From contig CAYLZE010000039.1 of the NCBI GenBank assembly GCA_964388035.1, positions 18,096-42,095 of the forward strand: 24,000 nt of DNA, read 5' to 3'. Shown in pieces: positions 1-23,633 of the stretch (position 1 is its first letter; every line of letters begins with the position of its first letter). The notes beneath the pieces were generated by a model. The model had not been told where the DNA came from, ran no database searches, and saw only the letters and a program-made list of their open reading frames with translations. Source of the DNA: an uncultured archaeon (GTDB lineage: Archaea; Asgardarchaeota; Lokiarchaeia; Sigyniarchaeales; SOKP01). The position numbers were made by a program, and so were the translations under genes.

Positions 1-2905
1 CAACTTCCTCGATAGGAACTGGTTTTTCTTTTTTGATTTCTTCTTCAACTATTGATTCCTTTAATTCTTTTTTCACATCAGAGGGAACCTGTTTTTCTTT
101 AATAGTTTCTTGAAATGTTTCCTCCTTCGCTTTTGGTACCTTCTGGGGTTCAGCTGTTTCTTCTAATATATTATAAGCCACATTTTTTTTACTTATCGAA
201 TTGCGCATTAAGTTTTCCAATTCATCTTTTGTTATTTGATCTTTAAATTTACTTCCTTCCTTGGCAATATTAAAAATACTACTGACGAATTTAGGGATAT
301 ATCTTTCAATTAAATTGGCACGTTTTTCTCTCTTATTAATTGCTATTCTCCTATTGAGATATGTTCTCAATCTTCTCCCAATTGCTTCTAAACAATATTT
401 TATTTCCTTTATTAAGTTCTCATCGTCAGCAAGGGCATTCTTCGACTGTGATTTAAACATTAAATGAACATATGGTCCGGAAACATTTATTAGAAGTTTT
501 ATGGGTCCTTTAGGTAAATTGTTATCATAAATATCTAATTTATAATTCTTCCAATTTACAGATTGCACAGCCTTGGTTATAGCGCAATCCGCACTATCTC
601 TCAATTTTGGGGTCCTGTTTACAAACCGGGATAATACATCCCTTGAACGTTTTGGCGTTTCGAGACTATTAGAATATGCCATGACGGCCTCAACAACAAA
701 AGCCAATCCCTTCCCACTCGTAGGGGTTCTGGTTTCGGCTGCCACGAAATCATCATCCTTACTAAAAGTTTCTAAAAAATAATCAAATATTTCTTGATAT
801 GTCTCTTTAGATTCTATTTCATCTAATACAATAAGATCTCCAATATTTTTTATAATATTCTCTTGAGACTCCTCTTGTCCATCGATATCGATATTAGAAA
901 GAATTTGAGTATTCAATTGGAGTACATCACTGTCTTCTATGGATATTTGTTCTAAAAGACTTGCATCACTCAAATTACTTTCTTTTATAATAGAATTCTT
1001 TTTTTCTTGGAGTAGTAATTCATGGGAATCTTGAATAGTCTCGATGGGGGTTCCAAAATCATCCAAATTTTCGGAAATTTTAAGCCCTAATTCCTTAATT
1101 AACGTGTTTTCCAAAACAGCTTCACCTACGGGAATTGTTGTATCCGTAGGAGGAGCCATATAATTTATGGATTTAAAAGCTAAAAAAAGAGAATCAAATT
1201 GATCTTTAGTTAATTCTGAAGGCTTACTTTTTGAAATTTCTACTTCATTAATTAAATCCTCCAAATTCTCCCTTTCTTTAAATTTTTTTAATTCTGTTAA
1301 ACCGTCCTTTACATTCTCAAAGAGAGTGCTGAAATTATTTTTGATTTGATCTTTATTTTTTCTAATTTTTTTAATCTCTTTTTTCAAATCATCTTTATTT
1401 TTTTCAATTTTTTTTTCTTCTTTCTTTGTCTCGGAATTTTCAATCTCATCATTTAATTTCTTAATTTCTTTTATAATTTTTTTGTTTTCTTTTAGCTGAT
1501 TATCATAGTCCGAAATTAATTTCTTATAATCATTTATCAAATTTTCGGAAGTTAATTGATATATGATTAATTGATCTCGCGTTTTTTTAGATTTTCCATA
1601 AACTCTTTTTTCATTTCGCATGAAGTAAATATCTTCACTGCTCTTAGATGCTTTTGTAATATATCCATTTTTTAATATTAAAACATTTAATTTATCCTGA
1701 AGATCCCTTTCGGCTAATTCGACTATTTTATTTGCAACCTTTTGACTTATTCTTACGAAATTGTCCTTTAAAAAAGAGGTAATGGTCAAATAATTTTCTG
1801 CTTTTGAGATTAAATCTTGTAAATCACCAATATTCGTGGATGCAGGATGAGGCTTAGCATACTTAGGTTCCTCTGGAAAATGTAATGCCAATCTAGGATA
1901 TTTGGATTCCTCCCCATATGGATCAATATAAATTATTGTAACATGGCTGTTTAGCATGGCTGTCTCACGAATATAATAATCGACGTATCCTCTAACATAT
2001 TTAGTGTTTAAATAGCTCAGCTTAATATAAGTTCCATGTAAATAGGGACTATCAACATCCGTGGGATGGATGATGTATCTTTTTTTATTTTTAGAAGTAG
2101 TAAAAAATTCAGATACAGTGGCATAAATATTATCAGCAGTTTTAGATATACTAATAATTGGCTTTCCGGTTGTATTCTGTGCATCACTAAATGCACTAGG
2201 TGCCCCAAATCCTTGACTCCCTCTTGTTTGCTTTAATTGGGTGCTTTTTGATGATGCTAAATATCTTCCAAATTTTCCAAAATCCCGCTTGTTCATCCCA
2301 AATCCATTATCAAAGATTTCAAAAGTATAACTCATTACGTTTTTTTGATTAAGCTCTGATGTTAAATAACTGGATGCTTCTGCTTCCCTCAACCGAATTA
2401 TCACCATCGGTTCGATATCAATGATCTTTTCTACTGGCTTTATTAATTCAGTCATATCTTCTATTATTCTCATGACTTCCTCCTCCACTTCGATTTCCTT
2501 TTTATCCTTGTTTTTCTCCGAGTTATCTCTGCTTTCTCCTCCTTTTTCTTCTGACTTTTCCTCTATTGGTTTGTTTCCATACTCTTTTCTTAAAATTTCT
2601 TTTGCATCCTGTTCAAGTTGGGGCTTTTCCTGACTCTTAGCATCATGAGTTAAAGATAAATGTTCCAATGATAACTCTTGATCTAGAGAAAAACTGATTT
2701 TTGATTCGGGATTCTCAATTTCTTGCCATTGAAAGGTTTCGATTGCATCCAAAGCATTATCCAGAAATTCAGCGCAATATTGTACATGCTTCCAATGTCC
2801 AAATTCGAATCCAACGAGCTGGGTCCTTTTGCGCATGAATTGAGCAATGGTTCCTTGTTTAATTCTTCCTTCTTCTTCCTCTTCATCTGTCGCCATTTGA
2901 GTCAT
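1..2905 (-). CDS. top6B: DNA topoisomerase VI subunit B (Top6B-like GHKL ATPase), 3'-partial, more than 968 aa
   Basis: Missing from the ORF track because it has no stop inside the window. My manual minus-strand translation from the ATG at 2905 is stop-free down to position 2 (968 codons). Motifs read: Bergerat N-box EFLDNALDA (2744-2770); G1 box DNGFGM (2294-2311); G2-like RGSQGFGAPSA...TTGKP; H2TH-like PHPAS...ITSFLKDNFVRIS; transducer GLAFVVEAVMAY, RFVNRTPKL and the WKxY motif (NWKNY); switch-lysine context FKSQSKNAL. Confidence 0.8.
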   Translation of the reverse strand, partial: MTQMATDEEEEEGRIKQGTIAQFMRKRTQLVGFEFGHWKHVQYCAEFLDNALDAIETFQWQEIENPESKISFSLDQELSLEHLSLTHDAKSQEKPQLEQDAKEILRKEYGNKPIEEKSEEKGGESRDNSEKNKDKKEIEVEEEVMRIIEDMTELIKPVEKIIDIEPMVIIRLREAEASSYLTSELNQKNVMSYTFEIFDNGFGMNKRDFGKFGRYLASSKSTQLKQTRGSQGFGAPSAFSDAQNTTGKPIISISKTADNIYATVSEFFTTSKNKKRYIIHPTDVDSPYLHGTYIKLSYLNTKYVRGYVDYYIRETAMLNSHVTIIYIDPYGEESKYPRLALHFPEEPKYAKPHPASTNIGDLQDLISKAENYLTITSFLKDNFVRISQKVANKIVELAERDLQDKLNVLILKNGYITKASKSSEDIYFMRNEKRVYGKSKKTRDQLIIYQLTSENLINDYKKLISDYDNQLKENKKIIKEIKKLNDEIENSETKKEEKKIEKNKDDLKKEIKKIRKNKDQIKNNFSTLFENVKDGLTELKKFKERENLEDLINEVEISKSKPSELTKDQFDSLFLAFKSINYMAPPTDTTIPVGEAVLENTLIKELGLKISENLDDFGTPIETIQDSHELLLQEKKNSIIKESNLSDASLLEQISIEDSDVLQLNTQILSNIDIDGQEESQENIIKNIGDLIVLDEIESKETYQEIFDYFLETFSKDDDFVAAETRTPTSGKGLAFVVEAVMAYSNSLETPKRSRDVLSRFVNRTPKLRDSADCAITKAVQSVNWKNYKLDIYDNNLPKGPIKLLINVSGPYVHLMFKSQSKNALADDENLIKEIKYCLEAIGRRLRTYLNRRIAINKREKRANLIERYIPKFVSSIFNIAKEGSKFKDQITKDELENLMRNSISKKNVAYNILEETAEPQKVPKAKEETFQETIKEKQVPSDVKKELKESIVEEEIKKEKPVPIEEV

Positions 2906-3280
2906 AATTGATAACCTATTTTTAATACTTTAATTACTCTTTATTTAAAGGTCAATAATTTATCTTTAAATTTTCAGTTCTCCAGAGACTGAATTCTTAT
3001 TTAAACTTTTGCCTTAATGAAAAACTTTAAAAGAAATAATTTGAAAATGAAATTGATATCCTCCTTTATCCCTTTATTATTCTATTCTATTAACTATAAC
3101 GCATAATAACCAAAAAATTTTTTCATTCTGGATATACCTTTTTAATCTCGTTAATAGTATTAAACTTGAAAATTAATTATTCTCGTATGAAGTATAGGCA
3201 GATCCAAAAATATAATTAATGAGAAAATCCGCATAGAAGGTATTTTAAACTTATTTTTATATAAAAGAAGATCCTAATTT

Positions 3281-5708: not shown

Positions 5709-6542
5709 ATGAAAATGATTATCGTGATTAAGATTGGAGGTGCATTGATTGCAAAAAACTTCCAAAATGTTATTAAAGACATTGGTGAAATTGCGAAAAA
5801 TTTTAGTGATAAATATCAATTAGTAGTTGTTCATGGTGGTGGGCCTCAAATAAATAAGACCATGAAAAGATTAAATCTCGAACCTAAATATTTTGATACT
5901 CCTTCTGGTTTCAAAACAAGATATACTGATCAAGAAACTATTGACGCTGTAATAATGAGCTTAGGAGGGCTAAATAATAAACGTTTGGTTGAAGCATTAC
6001 AAAAAAGTAAAGTAAATGCAGTAGGGCTTACTGGAATAGATGGTGGCATAATCATTGCAGAAAGAAAAGACAAGATCTTGGTTTTAATAAATGGAAAAAG
6101 AATAATAAAAAGAGGAGAATTTTCTGGAAAAGTGGTGGGTGTTAACCCGGAGATTTTAATTTTTCTTCTAAATAAAGGATATTTACCTGTCATTGGGTGT
6201 ATTGCCAAGAGTAAAGAGGGGGATATTGTGAATGTTGACGGTGATCGGGCTGCCAGTCATGTTGCAAAAGCATTAAATGCTGATTTATTAGTAAGCATGA
6301 CGGATGTTGAGGGTATATACAAAAATATTAATGATAAAAACAGCTATCTTTCAAAAATTAATAAAAAGCAATTAGAATTATTAATGGATGACTTGCAAGG
6401 TGGCATGAAAAAAAAAGCTCATGCGATTTTAGAAGCATTTCAATTAGGCGTTAAAAAAGTAATAATATGTTCTGGATTAAAAGAATCTCCCTTATTTGAA
6501 GTATTGGAACAAGACAAAGGTACCGTGATTATTAATGAGTGA
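5709..6542 (+). CDS. lysZ: [LysW]-aminoadipate / acetylglutamate kinase (amino-acid kinase family, LysZ/ArgB)
   Basis: Motifs IVIKIGGA, VVVHGGGPQIN, NKRLVEALQ and NVDGDRAA, plus a GKRIIKRGEFSGKV segment typical of LysZ. ATG 5709 (MKMIIVIKIGG) lies 25 nt after the lysX stop. The track start at 5640 overlaps lysX and is rejected. Confidence 0.82.
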   Translation: MKMIIVIKIGGALIAKNFQNVIKDIGEIAKNFSDKYQLVVVHGGGPQINKTMKRLNLEPKYFDTPSGFKTRYTDQETIDAVIMSLGGLNNKRLVEALQKSKVNAVGLTGIDGGIIIAERKDKILVLINGKRIIKRGEFSGKVVGVNPEILIFLLNKGYLPVIGCIAKSKEGDIVNVDGDRAASHVAKALNADLLVSMTDVEGIYKNINDKNSYLSKINKKQLELLMDDLQGGMKKKAHAILEAFQLGVKKVIICSGLKESPLFEVLEQDKGTVIINE

Positions 6543-7690: not shown

Positions 7691-10042
7691 TTAGTTATTA
7701 TCATTTTCCTTTAAATGCGGTTTTAAATTTAATTTATCGGCAATTGCGAGGAATTTTCCGAATGTTTTTTCATCGATTATATTTACTTCGTCGATATGAA
7801 GTAATTCCATTATCTTTTTACCATAATAAGTATCTTTAACATTTGCTAGATCATATTTTGAGTATTCCTTATTGATGATGCTAGATTCGAATTCTTGCTT
7901 TCTAATTGATAATATTTGATCAAAATACTTAGCAAAAGGAGTATTCCGTAATTGAGTTAAGTCAAAAACATCTGTTGCTCCAATCTTTTTAATTCTCAAT
8001 AATTCCTCAATATATTCTTGAATTTCTTTTAGAAATGCCAATTTAAAAGAATTTAAGTCAAATTTTTCAATTGGTATTTTTTTAAATATGTCAGAAAAAT
8101 CAATTTTTAATCCTTCAAGCTCCCTTTTGAGGTCCATCAAAATTAATAATTGATTGGTCCTCTCCTCCATGTTATTCTTTAATTCATTAAAAATGAAGTC
8201 TTTTTCACGGTTAATGAATTCGATTGAAAAGTTTTTAAAAGCTTTTATGAATTCACTATAATTTGGAATGAATTTCTTATTTGGATTGTTGATTATGCGT
8301 TCATGAGCATCAAAAGGACTTATTTCTTTTTGCATCACGGATTTTACCAGCGATAAAGGATAATATCCTTCGATAAATGACATCCCCTTTTGAATACTCT
8401 TGATTGCATCCGTAAAGGAGCATTTACTAATAACATTCACTGACTTGATTGTGTTTGCCTCAATTTTTACGGGCTTCTTCTTGCAATAACAAAGATCAAA
8501 CGGTTTTATATCATAGAATAAAGGGTTATTTACATCAGGGATTATTACTTGATTTCCATATGCTTGGAGGATGCTACTTTGAATGGGTTTATTTGCCAAA
8601 TCCCATTCTATTATAATAACGTCTTTTTCGCTGGGATATTTATGATATATATCGTAATTATAAGTAATATGTTTCGATACTAGCGAAAATCCGTCTATAA
8701 CGCTAATTTCATAATTATTTTTTTCACCCCAAAATTGATTTTTATAATACATTACGTCGGAAAAAGAATTAAAATCATCCAAAAAAAGTTCCTTAAAAAT
8801 GTATATATTCATACCAATTTCTGAGGATTTAATAGTAGGATCCTTAATTCCAAAAAATCCAATTCTAGAAAGGATGTAATGATAAACAGGATTTTTTAAA
8901 TTAGTAGGATCTTGAGAGATAATGTATGTATTTCGCTTTTTTCTAAAATTGCCCTTTGTCTTAATTATATCATGCTTATCCATTAATAACTTTAAAAATG
9001 CAAATTTCTTTAGGTAGAGCTTCTTTTCTAATTCTTTCAATTCCCTTTTATATTTGGAATATTCCTGCTGATAGGATGTTTTAGGGATGTTAAATGTTTC
9101 AAATTGGCTCTTCATCAATTTCAAGGTATCTATTATGCTAAAACTTTCAATTTGGCTAAAAAAATACTCCAAAATTACTTCCTTGAACTCTTTTAAATTC
9201 ATTGATGAGATAATATCTGTTATTTCGGGATGCATCTGAATTAGCTCGTCTTGATATTTAAAAATCAAATAATATGAAAAGTATTTCTCATTAAAATTGG
9301 AACTTAATAGCATCTTTTTAAATTCATCAATTTCCATTATTATGAACCTAAGATAATCAAATTTAAAGATGTTATCAAGCGAGTTCAGGATATGAAGTAT
9401 ATCATAAAATGTGTATTTTGAAATTGAGGATAAAAACCGCGTAAATCCCTTCTTAATAATATTTTCATATACCTTTAAATAACTGCCTAATTCATTTTCA
9501 TAACTCAATTTTATAAAGTTAAAAAATTCAAGGAAAAGATCATTATCAATTGATATGGTCAAATATCTATTGATAATGCTATTACACTTTTTTTGATCGA
9601 TAATCGCTTTATTAAGAAAACTCAATCCTTCAATATAATTATTATCCATTAAACAGTTATTTGCTAATAGTAAGAAGTTTTTACTCTTTTTATGGGAGCC
9701 ATAATCTTCATGCGTCAAATCATATTCATGAATATTTTCTAAAATCTTCATAGCAATATTTTCATTAATCATTAAAAAGAGTTTTATTAAATGGACACAC
9801 ATTTTTTTTTCAATTTCAGAATAAATTAAAAAGGAAGGGCAGTCATGGAATATCTCCCTTCTCTCATCATCTATAATGAGATGAAACTCACGATCGTTAT
9901 CAAGAATTAAACTCCTTATTTTAATAGGACTTTCTCTATAATAAATGATATTAATTTTATTTTTTGGGAAATCTTTTGCTTTCTGATAAAGATACTGGCC
10001 AAATTTTTCCTTTATTTGGTTAATTAGCTTATCTTTAATCAT
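7691..10042 (-). CDS. Large (783 aa) protein with an N-terminal SWIM-like zinc-finger variant; third gene of the MoxR-VWA operon
   Basis: A long ORF in AT-rich DNA is unlikely by chance. The motif H-D-C-P-S-F-x12-C-V-H (aa 66-84, nt 9791-9847) resembles SWIM CxCxnCxH with the first Cys replaced by His. I did not recognise the rest of the protein. Its start is 6 nt after the VWA gene stop. Confidence 0.6.
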   Translation of the reverse strand: MIKDKLINQIKEKFGQYLYQKAKDFPKNKINIIYYRESPIKIRSLILDNDREFHLIIDDERREIFHDCPSFLIYSEIEKKMCVHLIKLFLMINENIAMKILENIHEYDLTHEDYGSHKKSKNFLLLANNCLMDNNYIEGLSFLNKAIIDQKKCNSIINRYLTISIDNDLFLEFFNFIKLSYENELGSYLKVYENIIKKGFTRFLSSISKYTFYDILHILNSLDNIFKFDYLRFIIMEIDEFKKMLLSSNFNEKYFSYYLIFKYQDELIQMHPEITDIISSMNLKEFKEVILEYFFSQIESFSIIDTLKLMKSQFETFNIPKTSYQQEYSKYKRELKELEKKLYLKKFAFLKLLMDKHDIIKTKGNFRKKRNTYIISQDPTNLKNPVYHYILSRIGFFGIKDPTIKSSEIGMNIYIFKELFLDDFNSFSDVMYYKNQFWGEKNNYEISVIDGFSLVSKHITYNYDIYHKYPSEKDVIIIEWDLANKPIQSSILQAYGNQVIIPDVNNPLFYDIKPFDLCYCKKKPVKIEANTIKSVNVISKCSFTDAIKSIQKGMSFIEGYYPLSLVKSVMQKEISPFDAHERIINNPNKKFIPNYSEFIKAFKNFSIEFINREKDFIFNELKNNMEERTNQLLILMDLKRELEGLKIDFSDIFKKIPIEKFDLNSFKLAFLKEIQEYIEELLRIKKIGATDVFDLTQLRNTPFAKYFDQILSIRKQEFESSIINKEYSKYDLANVKDTYYGKKIMELLHIDEVNIIDEKTFGKFLAIADKLNLKPHLKENDNN

Positions 10043-10048
10043 TTTTCT

Positions 10049-12541
10049 CTAGAATTTTGATTTAATGATAGAACTAATCAAATTTGGAAATTTCTCCCAA
10101 TCAGAAATTGTTAACAATTGTCCACCAGTAATTTTTACCATTTTTTCTGCTTCTTTAAGATTATATTGATTTTCTGGACATACCAAGATAAAGTCTACCC
10201 CCATCGATCGCATGACTCTCAAGTCTTCTGCCACGTCCTTAATATCAAAGATCTCTGCATCTGTGAAAAGAATGTTCAATTTTTCCCGCGAGCTTGAACT
10301 TTCTTTAAATTGTTTTATTGCAAAATCCAAAGCTGCTTTAAGACGAGTTCCTCCTTTAGCTGTAACTGATAATAATTCTTCCGCTAACGATTCCAGCTCC
10401 ACTTTTTTTGTCATTTCTTTTAATACATGAGTATTCGATTCAAAGAAAGCAACAGCCAATTCATCCATTTTCATTCCGTATATTAACATCGTAATGCAAA
10501 TGCCCATATAAGCCAATTTATCCCCTGACATGCTTCCTGATATATCCAATTCAAAACAAGCGCTTCTCTGTCCTTTAGCAGTTTCATATACATAAAAATC
10601 ATCATAATTTATATGTTCTAATCTTTTTCCTTTTTCTAAGATATTATTGATAGTTTCTTCGAGATCTACATTTTCATAATCATCGCCGATTGTGAGAGGC
10701 CTTACAATATTAATCGGAATAGGCCCCGTCACGGCTGTACCCAATCTTGCTCGAGAATAATAGATTCCCAATTCTATAAGTATCTTTTTTGCCAGTTCTT
10801 TAACTTTCTCTTTTGCTTTTGGAGGAATGTTTTGTCGATGAATAAACCATTGCTTTAAAAGGTTTTCTCCACTTCCTGCTTGAAGTGAGCCAATAATTTC
10901 ATTCATTCCTTCATTTCCTCCTATTTTATTGGCTCCTTTTAGGGCTTTTTCCAAATCGAAATGACCTAACGCTGCTAATGCATCTCTATTGTCCGAGGAT
11001 AAAGCACTCTTTAAAAGTTCATTGATTCTATCTTCATTCAATTGATCTTTAATTTGGTTCATTAAATTACTTAATCTATTGAAATCTTGCACGTTCTTAT
11101 CAATTAATTTTTTCAACAATTGATAATTAGGTTCAATTAATTCATAAATTTCTTCTTCACTCATCCCTAAATCCTTGCCTTTTTTTTCGATATCATCAGG
11201 ATTTGGTTCCAATCCGATATTTCTTAAGAATTCTACGGAATCTTTTAACTGATTCGAATTTTCACATGATTCTAAGGTTCTGTTCACCATATCAGGTATT
11301 TCTCTACCCATTTTTTGATTACAGCTTATGTTTGAACAAGAATTCATTAATTGCTGTAATTGATGTGAAAGGGATTTAAATGCCTCAAATTTCTTAGCTT
11401 GCCCATCAGCAGATTGAATTGCTTTTTGTAAAGCTTTATCAAAGAGCGATTTCCAAGCTTTATTTGCTAAAGCTGCCTTTGAAAGCATTTCGAGTGATAA
11501 ATTATTCATTTGAGAATTATCTAAATTTTCATTTAGTTTTTCTAGAAAAGGCACTCTCATGTTTGTTCCAAAATATTGATCCAACGCATTAGCTAAGTTG
11601 AAATTATGCTCAAAATCGAGATTCTTGAGAGAATTTTGTAAAATTTTATCCAAATCAAAATTCGGTACTTCTCCAAGATTTTTGGCGGCATTGAATAATT
11701 CATCAAAATTATTTAATTTGCCCTCCAATTCTTTCATTAAATTCTTTAAATTCTCACGCGGTATTGCATTCGAGTCTTTTAAAAACTTCAAGCTCTGAAT
11801 TAAATCGTTTAAATTGCCTGATTTCAATAGATCATTTAAATCTTGATCAATATTTTTATTATTTAGTGCCTTGCTCGTTAATTTTTCCCATTGTCTTATA
11901 GAATTCTCTTCAATCATTGAATCCAAATTCAATTCTTTAGCTGCCTTTAAATCAGCGGGATCTAATGAGTTTATTTTTTGAGATAATCTTTTTCTTGCTT
12001 CTTCTAATAATTGTTCCAATGAAGTGATTTGTTCCTTGAACAAATCAGAATCATCTTCAAAATATTTCAATGCCGATTTGTAAGGTTCAGAATTTTTTTT
12101 ATTTTCCAATTCATTAAGAAATTTTTCCATTTGTTCAATTAAATCAACGTCAACGGATTTAGAAGCTTCAATTTCATCTATTAGATCTTGAAGTTGGTTC
12201 AATTCCTTTTTCTGAGTTGATGAAATTAAATCATCCATATCTTCAATCCCTTGCTCATCTTGAAAAAAAGAGGAAATTAAATCTTTATTATAATTCGGAA
12301 ATAAAATTTCAAAAGAAATTTGTTTTGCTAATTCTTGATTATCAGGATAAGAAGTGACTATGCTGATATCTATAAAATCTTGAGGAGTAATGTGCCCCTT
12401 GCGCATGTATCTCGATAAAATCATCTTGGGAATGGATAACACCTGTCGGGAAGAAGGAATTTGAATTATGTCTGGATGATTTCTCATTCTACGTATAAAC
12501 TCAACGCTAAACTCGCAAGGGCTTTCAGGAAAAATTCCCAA
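10049..12541 (-). CDS. von Willebrand factor A (VWA/MIDAS) domain protein with an ~600-aa coiled-coil/low-complexity N-terminal region
   Basis: The C-terminal VWA domain has a complete MIDAS set: DISGSMSG (DxSxS, nt 10532-10546), KGGTRL and LFTDAE. The upstream segment RARLG...IVRPL.IGDDYENVDLEETI is typical of MoxR-partner VWA proteins. The TTG start at 12541 is 8 nt after the MoxR stop; an alternative ATG (MRNHPD) lies ~50 nt downstream. Confidence 0.75.
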   Translation of the reverse strand: MGIFPESPCEFSVEFIRRMRNHPDIIQIPSSRQVLSIPKMILSRYMRKGHITPQDFIDISIVTSYPDNQELAKQISFEILFPNYNKDLISSFFQDEQGIEDMDDLISSTQKKELNQLQDLIDEIEASKSVDVDLIEQMEKFLNELENKKNSEPYKSALKYFEDDSDLFKEQITSLEQLLEEARKRLSQKINSLDPADLKAAKELNLDSMIEENSIRQWEKLTSKALNNKNIDQDLNDLLKSGNLNDLIQSLKFLKDSNAIPRENLKNLMKELEGKLNNFDELFNAAKNLGEVPNFDLDKILQNSLKNLDFEHNFNLANALDQYFGTNMRVPFLEKLNENLDNSQMNNLSLEMLSKAALANKAWKSLFDKALQKAIQSADGQAKKFEAFKSLSHQLQQLMNSCSNISCNQKMGREIPDMVNRTLESCENSNQLKDSVEFLRNIGLEPNPDDIEKKGKDLGMSEEEIYELIEPNYQLLKKLIDKNVQDFNRLSNLMNQIKDQLNEDRINELLKSALSSDNRDALAALGHFDLEKALKGANKIGGNEGMNEIIGSLQAGSGENLLKQWFIHRQNIPPKAKEKVKELAKKILIELGIYYSRARLGTAVTGPIPINIVRPLTIGDDYENVDLEETINNILEKGKRLEHINYDDFYVYETAKGQRSACFELDISGSMSGDKLAYMGICITMLIYGMKMDELAVAFFESNTHVLKEMTKKVELESLAEELLSVTAKGGTRLKAALDFAIKQFKESSSSREKLNILFTDAEIFDIKDVAEDLRVMRSMGVDFILVCPENQYNLKEAEKMVKITGGQLLTISDWEKFPNLISSIIKSKF

Positions 12542-12549
12542 TTATAGAT

Positions 12550-13485
12550 TCACCCGCCTAATAATTTATTAATGATATTATTAACCACGTCCTCTACATC
12601 TACACCCGGTTTAGGTTTTACACTACCCAATAAAACATTTCTCGATATTTCAGATAGGTGAATGTATGCAGATTTTTTTTCTTGGACATCTCCTTGTTTT
12701 TCTAACGCTCTTTTTCTTCCCAAAAGCTTTGCCATGGCAATTCCTGCTCTAATTGAGGCGGGTATTTCTATATCAATCATATTTTTACGTGTTTCATTAA
12801 TTATTGAATATATCAATTCTAATTCAGATTCTTCTATTGTAAAATGCTCCGGCAAATTAATCCGAATTATATCCAACTCAGTAGCTTTATCAGGATAATC
12901 CAATTTTATCCAGACTTTAATTCGATCTTTCAAAGCTTCAGATAACCTGTGCGTTCCGGATAATTCCTCCGGATTCATCGCACAAATGAAGAAAAAATCC
13001 TTATCTGCCTTGACCCTTCCTAAATGAGGTACGCTTACGGATGCCTCTTCTAATGGTTCCAACAAGGTATTTTGGGAATATTCCGTTGCTCGGTTTATTT
13101 CATTAGCTAAAAATGTTCCTCCTTCAAGCATCGCACTCAATAATGGTCCAGGATTAAATGCATCCAAGGTAAAGCCTTGCTTTAACACGATCGCGGGATC
13201 ATAACTTCCTATGAAGTGCGAGGGCTTAATTGACTCATCCATGGTCAACCAGTAGAAATTTTTCTGCTTTTCCGCTCTCATACTCGCAAAATACCTGCAT
13301 AGAATTGTTTTTCCTACACCAGGTGGACCGATTAAAGCAGGAAATAAAGATGTTGCCTCAGCATCTTTTAATAATTCCAAAGCCTTACCGTATTGTCCTG
13401 ATAGGACAATATCTATCTTTTCTAAGCTTAAATCTTTTATGAGCTGTTGATTAAATAATGTAGTAAATCTCTCTCTATTTATCAC
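12550..13485 (-). CDS. MoxR-family AAA+ ATPase
   Basis: Walker A is LIGPPGVGKT (nt ~13307-13332). The Walker B region FLANEINRA (nt 13093-13110) reads N-E instead of the usual D-E. Also present: TLLEPLEE, FFFICAMNPEE and ALKDRI, and a C-terminal lid. The GTG start at 13485 is the only start candidate upstream of the P-loop. Confidence 0.85.
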   Translation of the reverse strand: MINRERFTTLFNQQLIKDLSLEKIDIVLSGQYGKALELLKDAEATSLFPALIGPPGVGKTILCRYFASMRAEKQKNFYWLTMDESIKPSHFIGSYDPAIVLKQGFTLDAFNPGPLLSAMLEGGTFLANEINRATEYSQNTLLEPLEEASVSVPHLGRVKADKDFFFICAMNPEELSGTHRLSEALKDRIKVWIKLDYPDKATELDIIRINLPEHFTIEESELELIYSIINETRKNMIDIEIPASIRAGIAMAKLLGRKRALEKQGDVQEKKSAYIHLSEISRNVLLGSVKPKPGVDVEDVVNNIINKLLGG

Positions 13486-13774
13486 TATATATCCTCATTT
13501 ATTTTATTTCTAGTGATGATAATTTCTAATGCTTGAAAATATTTATTTTTAAATATAATAAGTCATGAGAATCTTGTAATGAATCATTATTGCAAATAAA
13601 ATAGATAAAGAAGAGATTTAAAAATCAATAATTTTTACTAAACTCTTGCTCTCTTTATTTATTTTTTCATGCTTTATTCTCTAAAATACTAAAATTTTAT
13701 ATGATCCATTTGCCTATTTTTAATTTAACAGTAATAAATTAAATTCGAATATAAGAGGATTGAGATAAAGCATC
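13486..13774. promoter_or_regulatory. Divergent intergenic region between the MoxR operon and the glycyl-radical enzyme gene
   Basis: A 289-bp AT-rich gap between divergently transcribed genes, so both promoters must lie here. No specific operator could be resolved by eye. Confidence 0.35.
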
Positions 13775-16153
13775 ATGATCATCGAACAAAGGTCTTATTC
13801 TGATTATGAAGAACAAATACAACGAATGAAAAAAGAAGTACTATCTTTTCCCCACGAGATATGTATAGAAAGAGCAAAAATCTTTACTTCATCTTATAAA
13901 AAGACCGTGGGCGAACCTCCAATTATCCGATTTGCTAAAGCAATGGATAAATTGCTCAGGGAAATGACAATAAAAATTTGGAATGATGAATATATTGTCG
14001 GGAATCGATGTACTAAAAAGATTGGAACGCCCCTTTATCCTGAGGTAAGAATTGATACCATTGAACAAGATATTTATTCCTATGAAAAACGTGAGGCTCA
14101 AAAATTATTCATTTCTGAAGAAGATAGAAGTAATCTAATTTCTGAAATATTACCCTATTGGAAAACGGAAGAAGAAACCGTAAAAGAGCGGTACTTATCT
14201 TATATCCCTGCCGATATCAAAGAAAAGGTCGATACTTTAGTATTCACCATAGAAACAGAGGTAACAAATGGAATTGGCCACTTTTTTCCGGGTCATGAAA
14301 ATGTACTTAAATATGGGCTTAGAGGATTAATTCAGAAAGTTGAAGATAAATTGAGCACTATAGTTGAAGATCCCAAAAAGAAAGTAAACATGAATGCAAT
14401 GCTCATTGAATTAAATGCAGTTAGTTTCTTTATTAAAAGATTTTCGAATCTTGCATTAGAATTATCCAAAAATGAATTGAATCCTCAACGAAATCGAGAA
14501 TTAATCGAGATAAGCGAAACATGTAATAATATCGCTGAAAAACCCCCTAATACTTTTAAAGAGGCGCTTCAATTAATTTATTTTACCCATCTGGCATGTG
14601 GATTGGAGGATGGTGGTTTTGCAATAAGTATTGGTCGCTTGGATCAGTATTTATATCCCTATTATATGGAAGACTTGAATAATGGTACGATTACGGATAG
14701 TGAGGTCCAATTCTTAATAGAGTGTTTCTTTTTAAAATTGAATACCCTTTGGAATTATGTATTTTATTTGGGCGTGAATGCTGCGGAAGGTCCTCCCATC
14801 GCTGAGAATGTAACGATCGGAGGATTAGATTCTAACGGAAATGATGCTACTAATAATTTATCAATCATTATATTAAAAGCATATACAAATCTAAAAACAG
14901 TCCAGCCTACATTTTCTATTCGAGTTCATAAAAAAACATCTACTAAATTCTTATCCCTCGTAGCAGATTCAATAAAGGAAGGAACCAGCATGGCCCTTTT
15001 TAATGATTCGGTTATGATAGAAGGATTAGTTAATCGAGGTTTCACGTTACAAGATGCGCGCCATTATGCTCCAATTGGTTGCGTGGAACCCCAGCATCCC
15101 TATAAGTCATTTGGATCCACTAATGCTAATCAATTCAATATTGTAAAATGTGTAGAATTAGCTCTAAATAATGGAACGGATATTTTTCTCAGGAGAGAGA
15201 TAGGATTAAAATACGATACTCCAATTACATCCTATCAAGATCTATGGCAGAGATTCTTGGAAAATATGAAACTTTTCATTGATTACATGGTAAAATCTAT
15301 GTATTATCTCGATAAAGCAATTTCTGAAATTAATCCCCAACCTTTTTTATCAACGACCATAAACAATTGCATTGAAAGGGGATTGGATATAACGCAAGGG
15401 GGTGCAGTGTATGATTTTACGGGACCGCAAATGATCGGATTGGCCACGGCAGCGGATAGTTTGGCTGTAATTAAAAAAATCATTTTCGATGAAAAATTGC
15501 TCTCGCTTGAAGAGCTCACTCAGATGTTAAAAAAAAACTTTAAAGGAAAGTATCAAGGAAAAGATGGGAAAGAATGGAGAGAGATTTTTATTAATAAAGT
15601 CCCTAAATTCGGCAATGATAATGATTATGTTGATAATATTGCTATTGACATTGTTGATAATTTCTGTAATGAGATATCGAAACATGCTAATTTCAGAGGA
15701 GGTAAATATAATCCGGGAATTTATTCTACATCCTTGCATCTTGCTTTTGGCACCTTTACAGGAGCTTCCGCTGATGGCAGAAAATCTCGCGATCCCTTAT
15801 CAAACGGTTTAGGACCTACACATGGAAGAGATAAAGAGGGTCCAACAGCTATTTTAAATTCCGTCAAAAAATTAGATAATTCCCTCCAAACAAATGGAAA
15901 TTCTTTAATTCTTGCCTTTCATCCAAAATCTTTTAAATCCGAATTATTTCCCTCATTAATTCGTTCCTATTTTACGGAAAATGGAGGCTATCATATTCAA
16001 TTTAACGTAGTCGGAAAAGACACGTTATATGATGCTCAAGTCCATCCGGAGAAGCATCTTGGTCTTGTTGTTCGCATTGCGGGTTATTCAGTTTTATTTA
16101 ATGAATTGTCCACTAACGCTCAAAATGAAATTATTGCTCGAACTGAATACTAA
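13775..16153 (+). CDS. Glycyl radical enzyme, PFL2 / glycerol-dehydratase / choline-lyase-like clade (792 aa)
   Basis: C-terminal glycyl-radical fingerprint VVRIAGYSVLF (RIAGYS at 16073-16090). Active-site loop APIGCVEPQ has Cys at 15080-15082 and Glu two residues later. The N-terminal ERAKIFTSSY...IIRFAKAM...DEYIVG is typical of the PFL2 family. Confidence 0.9.
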   Translation: MIIEQRSYSDYEEQIQRMKKEVLSFPHEICIERAKIFTSSYKKTVGEPPIIRFAKAMDKLLREMTIKIWNDEYIVGNRCTKKIGTPLYPEVRIDTIEQDIYSYEKREAQKLFISEEDRSNLISEILPYWKTEEETVKERYLSYIPADIKEKVDTLVFTIETEVTNGIGHFFPGHENVLKYGLRGLIQKVEDKLSTIVEDPKKKVNMNAMLIELNAVSFFIKRFSNLALELSKNELNPQRNRELIEISETCNNIAEKPPNTFKEALQLIYFTHLACGLEDGGFAISIGRLDQYLYPYYMEDLNNGTITDSEVQFLIECFFLKLNTLWNYVFYLGVNAAEGPPIAENVTIGGLDSNGNDATNNLSIIILKAYTNLKTVQPTFSIRVHKKTSTKFLSLVADSIKEGTSMALFNDSVMIEGLVNRGFTLQDARHYAPIGCVEPQHPYKSFGSTNANQFNIVKCVELALNNGTDIFLRREIGLKYDTPITSYQDLWQRFLENMKLFIDYMVKSMYYLDKAISEINPQPFLSTTINNCIERGLDITQGGAVYDFTGPQMIGLATAADSLAVIKKIIFDEKLLSLEELTQMLKKNFKGKYQGKDGKEWREIFINKVPKFGNDNDYVDNIAIDIVDNFCNEISKHANFRGGKYNPGIYSTSLHLAFGTFTGASADGRKSRDPLSNGLGPTHGRDKEGPTAILNSVKKLDNSLQTNGNSLILAFHPKSFKSELFPSLIRSYFTENGGYHIQFNVVGKDTLYDAQVHPEKHLGLVVRIAGYSVLFNELSTNAQNEIIARTEY

Positions 16154-16410: not shown

Positions 16411-16512
16411 GGGCCTGTAGATTAGTGGCAGATAGCTATGCTTAAATGCTTGCATGCCTGAAACGCGAGATTCGCATTCTCGAGGCCACGGGTTCAAATC
16501 CCGTCAGGTCCA
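16411..16512 (+). tRNA. tRNA-Ala (anticodon CGC) interrupted by a ~30-nt non-canonical intron in the D-arm; no encoded CCA
   Basis: Hand-folded. Acceptor stem GGGCCTG/CAGGTCC has a G3:U70 wobble and discriminator A73, the alanine identity elements. Anticodon arm CGAGA-TTCGCAT-TCTCG. Variable loop AGGCC. T-arm ACGGG-TTCAAAT-CCCGT. The locus is 102 nt against 72 nt expected. Removing 16434-16463 restores the D-arm GATT-AGTGGCA-GATC. Confidence 0.8.
16434..16463 (+). other. Predicted tRNA intron (between tRNA positions 24 and 25) with a relaxed bulge-helix-bulge motif
   Basis: The intron forms an internal hairpin, GC(T)ATGC-loop-GCATGC (16435-16441 / 16452-16457). A central helix CAG/CTG (16429-16431 / 16458-16460) is flanked by 3-nt bulges ATA (16432-16434) and AAC (16462-16464). 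Cutting after the second bulge nucleotide gives exactly the junction that restores the cloverleaf. Confidence 0.55.
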
Positions 16513-19227: not shown

Positions 19228-19965
19228 TTAATTTTCCCCTAGCTTTTCTTTTTTTTCTTCAATACCCAATTGAGCTATCATCATCCGTTTCATTTCTTCA
19301 ACATTTTTGGGCATTCCATACATTTCTGCATATTTATCCGTAGTTGTTAATTCTTGGGTTCTTCCTTTTTTTTTCGCTGAAATATACCCATTTTCTAAAA
19401 GATAACTAACATGTTCGTATGCTCCAGATCCTCTTATCTTTATCAAAGTTGATTTAAGAATTGGTTGTTTTAATGCAATAATTGTTAATGTTCTTAAATA
19501 TCGTTCTGCAATAGCCCCTCCTTTTGCAAATTTTGAAATTCGGTCCATGTATTCGGGTTTAATTTGTAATTGATACGTATCTTCTCCCAATTGGCTTATA
19601 ATTAGAGCAGAATTGCGATCCAAATATTCGAATGCTAATTCTTTCATTAAGTTTTCGACTTCTTTCTTGGAAAGATTCAATTTATTTGAAACTTCTTCAA
19701 TAGTGAGAGACGTTCCCGCAACAAATAAAGACGCTTCAATTAAATTCTTATTAAATTGTTGAGGTTCAATCTCAATGGTTATTTCGCCCTCATCTAACAT
19801 ATCGTTTGAAAGTTCAGTATCTGTTTCATTATTAATTTCTTCTTCAATCGGTGGATTTGAAATTTGATCTCCTTCTAAAGATTCGCCCAATTCTTCTTCG
19901 GGCTTTCCTTGTTCAAAATCCTCCTTTTCCTCTTCATCATTTTCTTCTTTATCATTCTCCATCAT
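19228..19965 (-). CDS. scpB: Segregation and condensation protein B (ScpB) with an ~70-aa acidic N-terminal extension
   Basis: Tandem winged-helix pattern: IEASLFVAG..LTIEEVS, then YLRTLTIIALKQPILKSTLIKIRGSGAYEHVSYLLENGYI...GRTQELTTTDKY. The N-terminus is E/D-rich (MMENDKEENDEEEKEDFEQGKPEEE...). It lies 31 nt downstream of scpA. Confidence 0.82.
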   Translation of the reverse strand: MMENDKEENDEEEKEDFEQGKPEEELGESLEGDQISNPPIEEEINNETDTELSNDMLDEGEITIEIEPQQFNKNLIEASLFVAGTSLTIEEVSNKLNLSKKEVENLMKELAFEYLDRNSALIISQLGEDTYQLQIKPEYMDRISKFAKGGAIAERYLRTLTIIALKQPILKSTLIKIRGSGAYEHVSYLLENGYISAKKKGRTQELTTTDKYAEMYGMPKNVEEMKRMMIAQLGIEEKKEKLGEN

Positions 19966-19996: not shown

Positions 19997-21103
19997 TTAT
20001 TTCAATTCGATAATTATGTCTTTAAAATCACTTTCTTGACTTAATTGAATTTCAGAAAATGCTTTACCCGCACCTCTAGCCCCTCCTGTGGATAAAAACA
20101 TGAGAGCAAGAAACAATCGAACTAAAACAAATTTTTTTCCCATAGAGGTTGATTCCTCATTTTTTATGATATTCATTAACTCAAAAAAAGATGTCTGTTC
20201 TTTATTATCTAAATTTATCGTTGCTCTAATGCGTTTTAACCAAGAATCATGTAATTCTTCAATAGTCTGTTCTTTTCCGCTTATATGTTTCAATATTTCC
20301 TTAGGTAGCTTTGCCTTGGATCTCATCTGAATTCTTTGCTGTTTATTTTCTTCTCTACGGATTCTCATTCTTTTAAGTTTTTCTTTCTTCTGCATGGTTT
20401 CAATGATCGCAGATCTCATGGCATCAAACAATTCTTCTTTGGTAGAGATTTCCATCTTTGGTCGAACTGGCTGAGGAAGGGACTTTGGAATCGTTCTTTC
20501 ATGACTTTTCCGCAGTTTTTCAATTTCTTCCTGTTTTTGGATCTCTTCTTCTTCTTTTATGACACTTGAAATTTTATAATGATGCAATACTGCCGAGTTC
20601 TTCAATGCTATTCCTGAGATTTTATAATTAATAAGATTCTCTTTAAGCATTTTGTCAAAGAAGTCATTAACTAAACTACCAAGCCCATAAAACACGATTT
20701 CGGACTCTTTAGCGAGTTCTGAATCTAATAAACTAGAATATGGGGGTTTATTCCAAAAATTTAACTCCATCTTGTCTTTTTTACCTAAGGAGGGATCTTC
20801 TTCTATTCCCGCAATGAGTTCCTTTTCTACCTCTTGGGTACTTTCTTCTTCACTATCAATTAAATTTGAACCATTATCTTCTATCTTTTTCTCTTCTGTT
20901 TCTGCATCGCCATTCTTATCTTTAAGAAACACTACAGCACGTTGAATATATTTTGAAGCAGTTGATTTTCCAATCCCCTTTACTTTAATTAGATCTTCTA
21001 CTTTAACTGAAGCTAAATCTTCGACAGAATCAATCCCTGCTTCCCTTAGAGTGGTAGCTGTCTTTTTTCCAATTCCGCCTATTTCTTCTAATGAGTGAAC
21101 CAT
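19997..21103 (-). CDS. scpA: ScpA-like kleisin fused to an N-terminal (HhH)2 DNA-binding domain
   Basis: The N-terminus LEEIGGIGKKTATTLREAGIDSVEDLA...LIKVKGIGKSTASKYIQRA contains two helix-hairpin-helix GIG motifs and resembles the RadA/Rad51 N-terminal domain. The middle segment ISGIALKNSAVLHHYKISS and the C-terminal FVLVRLFLALMFL...IQLSQESDFKDIII match the ScpA N-terminal helix and C-terminal winged helix. Adjacency to scpB supports the call. Confidence 0.72.
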   Translation of the reverse strand: MVHSLEEIGGIGKKTATTLREAGIDSVEDLASVKVEDLIKVKGIGKSTASKYIQRAVVFLKDKNGDAETEEKKIEDNGSNLIDSEEESTQEVEKELIAGIEEDPSLGKKDKMELNFWNKPPYSSLLDSELAKESEIVFYGLGSLVNDFFDKMLKENLINYKISGIALKNSAVLHHYKISSVIKEEEEIQKQEEIEKLRKSHERTIPKSLPQPVRPKMEISTKEELFDAMRSAIIETMQKKEKLKRMRIRREENKQQRIQMRSKAKLPKEILKHISGKEQTIEELHDSWLKRIRATINLDNKEQTSFFELMNIIKNEESTSMGKKFVLVRLFLALMFLSTGGARGAGKAFSEIQLSQESDFKDIIIELK

Positions 21104-21362: not shown

Positions 21363-22010
21363 TTAAATAATTACTAATCTCTCGTTTTTTAAAGTAGGCT
21401 CAAGTAATGTTAATAAATCGGGATTGATAAATAACAGGATTTGTCTAAGTGCTTCTAACGCGCCATAGCCCTTAACTGCAATGGTAATTCTGTATGATAT
21501 TCTTAAATGCTCCTCATTATCAATAAAATTACCAAAACGGGCCCTTAAGACCTCTCTGAACTCATCTATCGAAATTAGATCTGATTTATTCGTGTCATAC
21601 TTATTTAAACATAAAACAATAGGTATTTTTGAGAGATTTTCACCAAAAATGGAAACGAGCTCGGAAAAACTTGCCAAATCGTGCTCCAATTCTGATTTTC
21701 TTGCATCTGCAATAAATACTATTCCATCACAACCTTGTTTCATGATTACCATGCGATTATCTTTATAGTATTTTTGTCCTGTTGTACCGATTAAGACGAG
21801 TTTGACCTTCCAACCCTTAGAAATAACAAAGGTATAAACCCCGTGATCCCAGAACAACGTTCTTCCATGAGTGCCCTCAATCTTATCTAAAACGCCACTT
21901 GCTCCATACAACGAATGAATATAATCGATCATGGTTGTTTTTCCTGCCATTGCAGGCCCATAATATATAATTTTAACAAAGATGGTCTTTGAAAGTTGAT
22001 CAATAATCAT
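21363..22010 (-). CDS. MglA-like small GTPase (Ras superfamily)
   Basis: G1 is KIIYYGPAMAGKTT (nt ~21933-21959). The switch I region is GRTLFWDH. G3 is GTTGQ, lacking the Ras Asp as MglA's TVPGQ does. The G4 motif is LNKYD. The G5-like motif is AVKGYGALEAL. The stretch VIMKQGCDGIVFIADA closely parallels MglA LILKGVDGVVFVADS as I recall it. Confidence 0.8.
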   Translation of the reverse strand: MIIDQLSKTIFVKIIYYGPAMAGKTTMIDYIHSLYGASGVLDKIEGTHGRTLFWDHGVYTFVISKGWKVKLVLIGTTGQKYYKDNRMVIMKQGCDGIVFIADARKSELEHDLASFSELVSIFGENLSKIPIVLCLNKYDTNKSDLISIDEFREVLRARFGNFIDNEEHLRISYRITIAVKGYGALEALRQILLFINPDLLTLLEPTLKNERLVII

Positions 22011-22874: not shown

Positions 22875-23633
22875 GTGATAATTATCTCGGAAATTGATGA
22901 TGATTATAACGAGGACAATGAAAATGATTATGACCTTGATTGCGAGGAAGAAGTTGAGGAGGAACTTGAAGAGAAAATAGAAAATTTAAAAGAAATTGAT
23001 GATGATCTTGAAGAAAAAAAGATTGAGGTTTCGGAAAAGATTCAAGAATTCAAGAGAAAATCTTCCGGGGTTGAGAATTTAAGTAAACAAGATATTGATA
23101 TTAAGAATTATTATAAAGATTCTTCATTGAAAACGGAAAAAATATTGCATGATACTAAGAATGAACTTTTAAACAATGAAAAAACAGATCAATTGATTGC
23201 ATTTAAGCTAAAAAATGATACTTGTTCACTTTACGACAAATCATATTTAACAGAGATAGGATTAAAAAAAAAAATAGATTTAGACGGAATTCCTGATGAA
23301 ATTTCTTTCTTTTTGAACATGAGACGAATTAAAGTAAAAGAACTTGCAAGAAACATACCAAAAATCAGGGATAACGAAAATATTATACTAAAGAAAGAAA
23401 AAACCCAAATTTGTAAAAATGTTGTTAATTCTAATCAAAATGATAATTCTAATGAAATAAATGATGCGCATTCATTGGGGAAAAAAGATTTGCAGCAAAA
23501 TGAAGAGATAAATGAAAAAACAGAAATCCTTATCGAAATTTTAAAGGTGCTAATCAATCTTATTGCCCAGGAAAATTCACAATCTGATAACTTTAAAAAA
23601 GACATCTTAAAGATCTTAAATAAAAGAAATTAA
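22875..23633 (+). CDS. Hypothetical acidic/low-complexity protein (252 aa)
   Basis: A 759-nt open frame in ~30% GC DNA is unlikely by chance. It has a GTG start about 10-25 nt downstream of a TATA-like TTATAATTATAAAAAAAG, which may indicate a leaderless mRNA. The N-terminal 60 aa are D/E-rich and the rest is K/N/E-rich. No recognisable domain. Confidence 0.55.
   Translation: MIIISEIDDDYNEDNENDYDLDCEEEVEEELEEKIENLKEIDDDLEEKKIEVSEKIQEFKRKSSGVENLSKQDIDIKNYYKDSSLKTEKILHDTKNELLNNEKTDQLIAFKLKNDTCSLYDKSYLTEIGLKKKIDLDGIPDEISFFLNMRRIKVKELARNIPKIRDNENIILKKEKTQICKNVVNSNQNDNSNEINDAHSLGKKDLQQNEEINEKTEILIEILKVLINLIAQENSQSDNFKKDILKILNKRN

Follow-up and report, generated by a model that had tools for sequence, protein, structure and literature searches.

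A conserved MoxR, VWA and SWIM-like three-gene operon of Asgard archaea as a candidate ATP-driven remodelling machine

What does a MoxR-class AAA+ ATPase do when its gene is followed, within a few nucleotides, by the genes for two large proteins without known relatives? Pairs of MoxR ATPases and proteins with a von Willebrand factor A (VWA) domain are among the least understood AAA+ machines, and the few that are understood activate key enzymes such as Rubisco, nitric-oxide reductase (NOR) and CO dehydrogenase. We analyzed a stretch of 24,000 nucleotides (nt) from an uncultured archaeon of the Lokiarchaeia (contig CAYLZE010000039.1, positions 18,096 to 42,095; referred to as the window), which carries such an arrangement on its minus strand, the strand of all features of the operon given below. 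Gene A (12550-13485, GTG start) encodes a MoxR-class AAA+ ATPase of 311 amino acids (aa), gene B (10049-12541, TTG start) a VWA protein of 830 aa and gene C (7691-10042, ATG start) a SWIM-like and helical-repeat protein of 783 aa. From the comparison of their sequences it seems probable, with some reservation, that the trio is a cytosolic housekeeping machine specific to Lokiarchaeia-type Asgard archaea, which would use ATP for remodelling and in which B would bridge A and C.

Gene order and inheritance of the trio

The original prediction, made by a model from the letters of the DNA, described three co-directional genes with gaps of 8 and 6 nt, and the open reading frames were found exactly in this arrangement, all on the minus strand. 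In the A/B junction (12542-12549, 8 nt) a GGGTGA overlaps the stop codon of A just 5' of the TTG of B, and the B/C junction (10043-10048) has 6 nt. Reading the junction sequences also revealed a GAGGA 7 nt 5' of the GTG start of A, and an oligo-T run follows the stop codon of C. Upstream of A lies an AT-rich intergenic region (13486-13774), presumably the promoter region, across which a gene for a glycyl-radical enzyme is oriented divergently. The N-terminus MG[IV]FPENPCEF is conserved in the alignment of B homologues and supports the TTG start of gene B; the public NCBI call for B begins 18 codons later and is 18 aa shorter. No hydrophobic stretch of membrane-spanning length was found in A, B or C.

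Close homologues are numerous, with at least 372 for B and at least 253 for C. Among the best 120 of each, the lengths are nearly full, and all source names that are given are Asgard ones. A profile of C gave only 92 matches in 1.84 billion cluster representatives. Scanning one genome per GTDB species we found 97 relatives and fetched 80 loci. All record titles naming a lineage refer to Asgard archaea, mostly Promethearchaeota/Promethearchaeia with a few Thor-, Hermod-, Hod- or Odinarchaeota, and about ten read 'uncultured archaeon' only. The arrangement A-B-C, with all three genes on one strand, is kept in 67 of the 80 species-level loci, and the remaining 13 are cut in A or B by a contig end or, in locus L057, by an assembly gap. 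In the latter (CP070805.1, a metagenome-assembled genome (MAG) labelled 'complete chromosome') a run of 100 N lies inside gene B (6008-6107), with neither A nor the first two thirds of B present upstream, probably due to a scaffolding gap or a misjoin. Junctions within the trio mostly measure 7–25 nt, with usually 7–12 nt from B to C, and a few loci show a 200-nt gap or an inserted gene; in L003 and L034 a B12-binding/radical-SAM gene stands between B and C. Thus C is syntenic with the MoxR and VWA genes in related genomes, which supports an uncharacterised three-gene module, predicted to be ATP-driven, in Asgard archaea. In the literature library that we searched there was no paper joining MoxR, VWA and Asgard archaea or Lokiarchaeota, or describing this family.

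The median identity to the window is 81% for A, 65% for B and 53% for C, with orthologues of A showing 77–87% in 67 loci and those of B 59–80% over the full length. In the same loci the medians are 72% for CoaBC, 65% for the glycyl-radical enzyme, 64–65% for LysX and LysZ and 59% for LysK. As the trio reaches levels like those of these neighbouring metabolic genes, it is as constrained as core metabolism, and its motor gene is conserved above the CoaBC and Lys-pathway genes across about 70 species of the archaeal class to which the cultured Asgard strains belong. We also compared pairwise distance matrices from 51 loci, using CoaBC as the single control gene. Each of the three proteins gives a matrix that correlates with that of CoaBC (r 0.84–0.86), which argues for vertical inheritance of the trio. 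The partial correlations controlled for CoaBC are 0.56 for A-B, 0.69 for B-C and 0.35 for A-C, as would be expected if B touches both A and C.

Following weak matches of the C profile, we identified four further versions of the whole trio in archaeal MAGs, all having a C-like gene 3–25 nt after a MoxR-VWA pair. In the first of these (L086, L087 and L088) the MoxR, VWA and C-like proteins comprise 367–424, 854–873 and 781–797 aa; the respective lengths are 358–363, 846 and 680 aa in the second (L090 and L091), 297, 744 and 697 aa in the third (L093) and 385, 901 and 941 aa in the fourth, which belongs to a Helarchaeota cluster (L094). In L092 a C-like gene is located 4 nt after a VWA gene, and the 4-kb contig ends before any MoxR gene could show. 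Compared with the window, the proteins of L088, L090 and L093 show 51–55% identity for MoxR, 25–35% over the full length for the VWA protein and about 22% or less for C. As L088 was found in the same assembly as L052, which has a trio of the window's type, two paralogous trios coexist in one genome. Such co-duplication with parallel divergence is strong evidence for a joint function of three mutually matched proteins. A conserved motor locked to two large proteins without known relatives, in a set that was duplicated and kept, points to an important cellular job of the trio in Lokiarchaeia.

Domains and motifs of the three proteins

Protein A matches Pfam AAA_5 with 65.6 bits (cut-off 22; E = 5.9e-18) and AAA_3 with 54.8 bits (cut-off 27; E = 1.2e-14), and a search against the PDB retrieved the solved MoxR 2r44 (E = 9e-11) and structures of NorQ (E = 8e-6). 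Scores above the gathering thresholds of both families together with the similarity to a solved MoxR place A in the MoxR class, to which it had been assigned from the start. Profile searches also gave weak matches to BchD-ChlD and Mg_chelatase. The Walker A motif GPPGVGKT (aa 53-60; 13306-13329), of which the translation was verified, is conserved in 77 MoxR copies. The Walker B region FLANEINRA (aa 125-133; 13087-13113) aligns with ILADEVNR of 2r44, F-L-A-N-E standing opposite I-L-A-D-E, so that the catalytic Glu is kept and Asn128 occupies the position of the Mg-coordinating Asp of MoxR proteins. The rest of the active site appears intact despite this exchange.

Protein B carries a CoxE-like VWA domain close to its C-terminus (aa 624-794; 10160-10672), which is recognized by Pfam and by PDB VWA sequences. 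The match to VWA_2 reaches 34.9 bits (cut-off 27; E = 2.6e-8), that to VWA_CoxE is marginal with 27.3 bits (cut-off 26.4; E = 3e-6). The metal-ion-dependent adhesion site (MIDAS) starts with D-I-S-G-S (aa 666-670; 10532-10546; translation verified) and is completed by T732 (10346-10348) and D761 (10259-10261). Alignments A2 and A5 show D666, S668, S670, T732 and D761 to be invariant across the trio subtypes including the diverged paralogues, in full agreement with the predicted 830-aa protein having a C-terminal VWA domain and an intact MIDAS. The preceding ~620 aa (10673-12541) are composed of a conserved N-domain (aa 1-95), a variable acidic linker (~aa 95-112) and an all-alpha solenoid. This region is family-specific, aligns at 25–35% identity in the paralogous trios and gave no match in Pfam, NCBIfam or the PDB for its N-terminal 600 aa. 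The deepest profile of B used in searches against Pfam and PDB sequences had 11 members spanning all trio types. In the AlphaFold2 (AF2) model, with a mean predicted local distance difference test (pLDDT) of 62, only aa ~210-590 are confident, and these form the solenoid.

Foldseek with this model returned generic HEAT, TPR and ARM proteins and VWA domains only, and neither CbbO nor NorD was retrieved from the PDB by profile or by Foldseek. Structures of Rea1/Mdn1 (midasin) are present in the PDB, and they appeared neither among the PDB matches of A (E ≤ 0.01) nor among the profile matches of B (E ≤ 10), which speaks against a midasin-like membership. With increasingly diverse profiles and Foldseek against the PDB yielding VWA domains and generic solenoids only, we rejected B as a CbbO/NorD-like or midasin-like protein. 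The helical region of B also contains a Cys/His cluster H393...C402-x3-H406-C407...C426 (aa 393-426; 11264-11365), which the type-1 trios have, the L088 version has in part and the L090 version lacks. Some B homologues (P0165, P0167, P0195 and others) carry PF27098 in precomputed annotations.

Protein C showed no match in Pfam (E ≤ 1), NCBIfam, PADLOC or the PDB. It contains the motif HDCPSFLIYSEIEKKMCVH (aa 66-84; 9791-9847), which has the form H66-D-C68...C82-x-H84 and is part of an invariant H66-D-C68-P...C82-x-H84 in an alignment of 33 sequences. All type-1 orthologues have H66, C68, C82 and H84, and at least 90% of the sequences still have them once diverged relatives are included. The diverged relatives keep H-x-C-P-D...C-K-H with a shorter spacing, and at this site PF04434 (SWIM) scores 13.4–17.3 bits, which is below the cut-off of 19.6. 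The signature of C, HxC-x13-CxH, differs from the SWIM signature CxCxnCxH in having His in place of the first Cys. In the AF2 model H66 and C68 follow a four-stranded sheet and C82 and H84 lie at the start of a helix, a predicted secondary structure that is compatible with the beta-beta-alpha unit of SWIM. Of the SWIM-like zinc finger that had been predicted, the invariant H-x-C...C-x-H motif therefore stands, and the gathering score of PF04434 is missed; as membership in PF04434 is not demonstrated, 'SWIM-like' is fair as a description.

The model of C can be divided into five parts, with a sheet leading into the motif, a helical region of TPR-like repeats (aa 117-356; 8975-9694), a small alpha/beta unit, an unfolded-looking core and a helical C-terminal part. 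Sub-threshold matches to TPR and MA3 were obtained for the relative P0259, and Foldseek with the C model found TPR and HEAT solenoids, with nothing at E ≤ 1e-3 against the PDB. Within the conserved core (aa 430-570; 8333-8755) the residues W438, E479, W480, P514, C520 and P562 are invariant across subtypes, and aa 451-541 look unfolded (pLDDT <50) though they are very conserved. The two large proteins had been described as coiled-coil-rich, and this had to be given up because the AlphaFold models contain alpha-solenoid or TPR-like regions made of short helices. As originally stated, the N-terminal 600 aa of B and most of C are unexplained, also after searches with diverse profiles and with structure models. 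The functional motifs, i.e. Walker A, the catalytic Glu, the MIDAS residues and H-x-C...C-x-H, are all intact.

Parts of C also occur in other proteins. The C-terminal ~110 aa (aa ~670-783; 7694-8035), characterized by G-x-T-x-x-F-D...R-K-x-E-F-E...T-Y-Y-G, represent a mobile domain that matches 18 other proteins with 38–49 bits, including leucine-rich repeat (LRR) and Arf/Ras-like GTPase proteins (P0302, P0304, P0310, P0311, P0316, P0318, P0326, P0330 and others). For four of them a source name is given, which is Lokiarchaeia or Thorarchaeota, and E717 in R-K-x-E-F-E is conserved in every aligned member listed. The N-terminal module of C matches small archaeal proteins at E ~1e-4 to 1e-5 in a search of 1.84 billion proteins. 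These show a weak match to DUF2240, below the Pfam cut-off, together with the motif HDCPDW...CKH (P0307, P0308, P0320, P0328 and P0374; L095, 4665-7241). One of them is encoded 22 nt after orc1/cdc6 and adjoins the gene for the small subunit of DNA polymerase D (PolD), with a separate small MoxR-VWA pair at a distance of 3 kb, and stand-alone versions of 107–111 aa are found in Wukongarchaeota. Newly defined in this work are thus two protein families, a mobile domain that C shares with Asgard GTPase and LRR proteins and a variant zinc-finger signature, H-x-C-P-D...C-K-H, with further instances in small archaeal proteins.

A remodelling machine and its alternatives

In CbbQ/CbbO, NorQ/NorD, RavA/ViaA and BchI/BchD/BchH an AAA+ ring together with a VWA/MIDAS adaptor acts on a large partner (PMC7159879). 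Among them, CbbQ/CbbO and NorQ/NorD likely represent the working principle of the trio by analogy, as they also consist of a small AAA_5-type ATPase followed by a protein of ~600–800 aa that carries a VWA domain with an intact MIDAS at its C-terminal end. The trio differs from them in its obligatory third partner of 783 aa and in the Asn in Walker B of A, and neither Rubisco nor NOR genes were found in the window. Following this family precedent, A would be the motor and would form a hexameric, nucleotide-driven ring, and B, as its obligatory partner made of solenoid and VWA domain, would hold an acidic residue of the target with its MIDAS. Protein C might be a soluble scaffold built from the SWIM-like zinc module, the TPR-like repeats, the conserved core and the mobile C-terminal domain, and synteny, co-duplication and co-evolution suggest that it serves either as substrate-recruiting adaptor or as dedicated client. 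With B bridging A and C in one complex, ATP turnover by A would then alter the conformation or assembly of whatever B and C hold.

Several observations weigh against such a machine. Across the trio subtypes 77 of 77 MoxR copies have ANE in Walker B and none has ADE, and with an Asn in every copy ATP hydrolysis by the motor may be slow, or A may behave like a nucleotide switch. The neighbouring genes differ between the subtypes and name no client, and the diverged high-GC C-like protein P0291 (L089, on an 8.8-kb contig) is encoded without a MoxR-VWA pair. Both AF2 models are only moderate, that of C having a pLDDT of 77 and a predicted template modelling score (pTM) of 0.46 and that of B a poorly modelled VWA domain. 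Finally, with a single control gene the co-evolution signal for B contacting both partners is no more than suggestive.

A bacterial counterpart of the trio had been seen in the yehLMPQ operon of E. coli, which had been described as having the same AAA+/VWA/SWIM combination and belongs to the uncharacterised YehL-type MoxR systems. This description of its content was correct, as we found AAA_5 in YehL, DUF5682 in YehM, VWA_CoxE in YehP and SWIM at aa 56-88 of YehQ. In a strikingly parallel layout, both operons have co-directional, tightly packed genes for an AAA_5-type MoxR ATPase, a CoxE-type VWA protein and a large protein whose sole recognisable feature is an N-terminal zinc motif (aa 56-88 in YehQ, aa 66-84 in C), and YehL likewise deviates from the canonical Walker B (F-E-E). 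However, the E. coli operon consists of four genes with YehM (DUF5682, 759 aa) and YehP (378 aa) being separate, whereas B is one protein of 830 aa that shows no DUF5682 match. A is 25% identical to YehL over the AAA core, whereas its identity to MoxR proteins from the other archaeal trios is 51–55%, and the motif of C, unlike that of YehQ, has His for the first Cys and misses the Pfam threshold. BLASTP and hhalign found nothing between B and YehM and the VWA domain only between B and YehP, hhalign gave a probability of 0.1% for C and YehQ, and no link between the latter two was obtained via the weak SWIM-bearing intermediates P0305 and P0309. We therefore rejected a homology to YehLMPQ that goes beyond generic AAA and VWA similarity.

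The maturation of metal centres is the job of most characterized MoxR-VWA pairs. In a CoxD/E/F-, NorQ/NorD- or chelatase-like manner, A and B might insert a metal or cofactor with C as carrier or scaffold, and several details fit to this: B passes the VWA_CoxE gathering score, its homologues are named 'Mg-chelatase subunit ChlD' by JGI, A weakly matches BchD-ChlD and Mg_chelatase, and invariant Cys and His residues are found in C (H66, C68, C82, H84, C520 and C541) and B (C402, C407 and C426). In addition, 36 loci have a gene for a glycyl-radical enzyme divergent from A, and some trios have a radical-SAM gene inserted within them or nearby. Nevertheless we regard this function as unlikely, as C resembles neither CobN/BchH nor CoxF nor any other Pfam or PDB family, the B profile missed NorD and CbbO in the PDB, the Cys cluster of B is lost in the L090 version, and no metalloenzyme neighbour is common to the trio subtypes. 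The glycyl-radical enzyme correlates with the trio at a raw r of 0.38–0.57, but its partial r with A is -0.02. Class I chelatases (BchI/BchD/BchH and CobS/CobT/CobN) share with the trio a logic of three parts, in which an AAA+ motor is combined with an adaptor that has an acidic linker and a C-terminal VWA/MIDAS and with a third subunit of large size; in contrast to them, C has no homology to CobN/BchH, B lacks the AAA-like N-terminal half of BchD, and a tetrapyrrole context is absent.

Less likely again is a role as DNA or chromosome remodeller, in which the module of C would target DNA or a replication or repair protein and A and B would load, unload or disassemble a nucleoprotein complex. 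Here the similarity of this module to the small DUF2240 and HDCPDW...CKH proteins, one of them beside orc1/cdc6 and the PolD small subunit, is of interest as DUF2240 corresponds to the Rpa1 connecting domain (bioRxiv 10.1101/2022.07.20.500673), but these DUF2240 matches are under the Pfam cut-off and C has no nuclease, helicase or recognised DNA-binding domain. The type-1 trios neighbour genes for ScpB, a helix-hairpin-helix (HhH) protein, Topo VI B, methyltransferases (49 loci) and a TIGR00375-family protein, yet synteny among related genomes is inherited and by itself no sign of function, and other subtypes lie among hydrolase, transporter and redox genes. A radiation-induced five-gene operon of Deinococcus deserti has a leading SWIM gene and includes a MoxR ATPase (PMC4007540), a resemblance in described gene content. 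All support for this role is circumstantial.

Rea1/midasin is known to grip the ubiquitin-like (UBL) domains of Rsa4 and Ytm1. In a similar way the C-terminal domain of C could be a 'handle' that is gripped by the MIDAS of B, and if so the motor could act on several of the Asgard GTPase and LRR proteins that share this domain. This variant is a long shot. If true, the trio would use ATP to regulate GTPase and LRR assemblies in a way that is specific to Asgard archaea and has no bacterial counterpart.

Ternary vWA-MoxR conflict systems are characterized by a VMAP, iSTAND, FtsH or beta-propeller protein as third component, by variable effectors, by architectural variability and by rapid evolution (Kaur et al. 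2020, PMC7159879), and SWIM is not mentioned in the text of this defining paper. The original prediction had pointed to these systems, and indeed the trio resembles them in its MoxR and vWA pair with a conserved third protein, in the occurrence of paralogous copies within one genome and in the DNA methyltransferase genes that are often adjacent. That the trio serves in virus defence or conflict, C being its sensor or effector, is nevertheless highly improbable and was rejected, as PADLOC found nothing for B and C and weak P-loop matches only for A, A scores 11.7 bits on bpMoxR (cut-off 27), none of the typical third components and no effector or effector-associated domain (EAD) is present, the VWA domain is C-terminal in a protein with a constant N-terminal region whereas published effectors are fused C-terminal to vWA, architecture and lengths are uniform over 80 loci of these archaeal hosts, conservation equals or exceeds that of core enzymes, inheritance is vertical and 2.9 million viral contigs contained no relatives. 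The housekeeping remodelling machine described above is the function that we favour for the trio.

Neighbouring genes in the window and in related loci

The glycyl-radical enzyme gene (13775-16153, plus strand), divergent from the operon, belongs to the PFL2/glycerol-dehydratase subfamily (TIGR01774, 707 bits, above cut-off), and no activating radical-SAM gene was found in the window. We rejected this enzyme as client of the trio, as its gene is divergent in only 36 loci, usually with a methyltransferase gene between, and no co-evolution was seen. CoaBC as a fourth operon member was also discarded because of gaps of at least 93 nt (median ~1.4 kb) with other genes between. The methyltransferase gene, which is absent from the window, lies between the glycyl-radical enzyme gene and A in 49 of the ~70 loci with upstream DNA and is mostly divergent from A. 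Two unrelated families fill this slot, N6_N4_Mtase in 32 loci and the D12/Dam class in 17, as seen in loci between L006 and L085 (e.g. L032, 2533-3408, and L025, 308-1252). Downstream of C, locus L008 (5646-6878, minus strand) and 21 others contain a convergent gene for a 410-aa protein with a CPYC motif. It scores 145 bits against TIGR00375, which we take to be the endonuclease Q family, and thus stays below the cut-off of 327.

A tRNA of 102 nt (16411-16512, plus strand; Rfam, 51.5 bits) is located just upstream of a class I aminoacyl-tRNA synthetase gene, which is annotated as valyl-tRNA synthetase type in related loci. The length of the tRNA suggests an intron inside, and ARAGORN reported no tRNA in the window. 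The left edge is occupied by the gene for an unusually long Topo VI B subunit (2-2929, minus strand; at least 976 codons, running off the edge), with Topo-VIb_trans at aa 726-869 and large acidic insertions in the frame. Acidic regions are also present in ScpB (19228-19965, minus strand), which has a long acidic N-terminal extension, and a 252-aa protein without family match is highly acidic (22875-23633, plus strand). Beside ScpB lies the gene for a 368-aa protein that has an HhH motif in its N-terminal part and a tail that is basic or acidic (19997-21103, minus strand), and a small GTPase of 215 aa (21363-22010, minus strand) shows weak matches to Gtr1/RagA and Ras.

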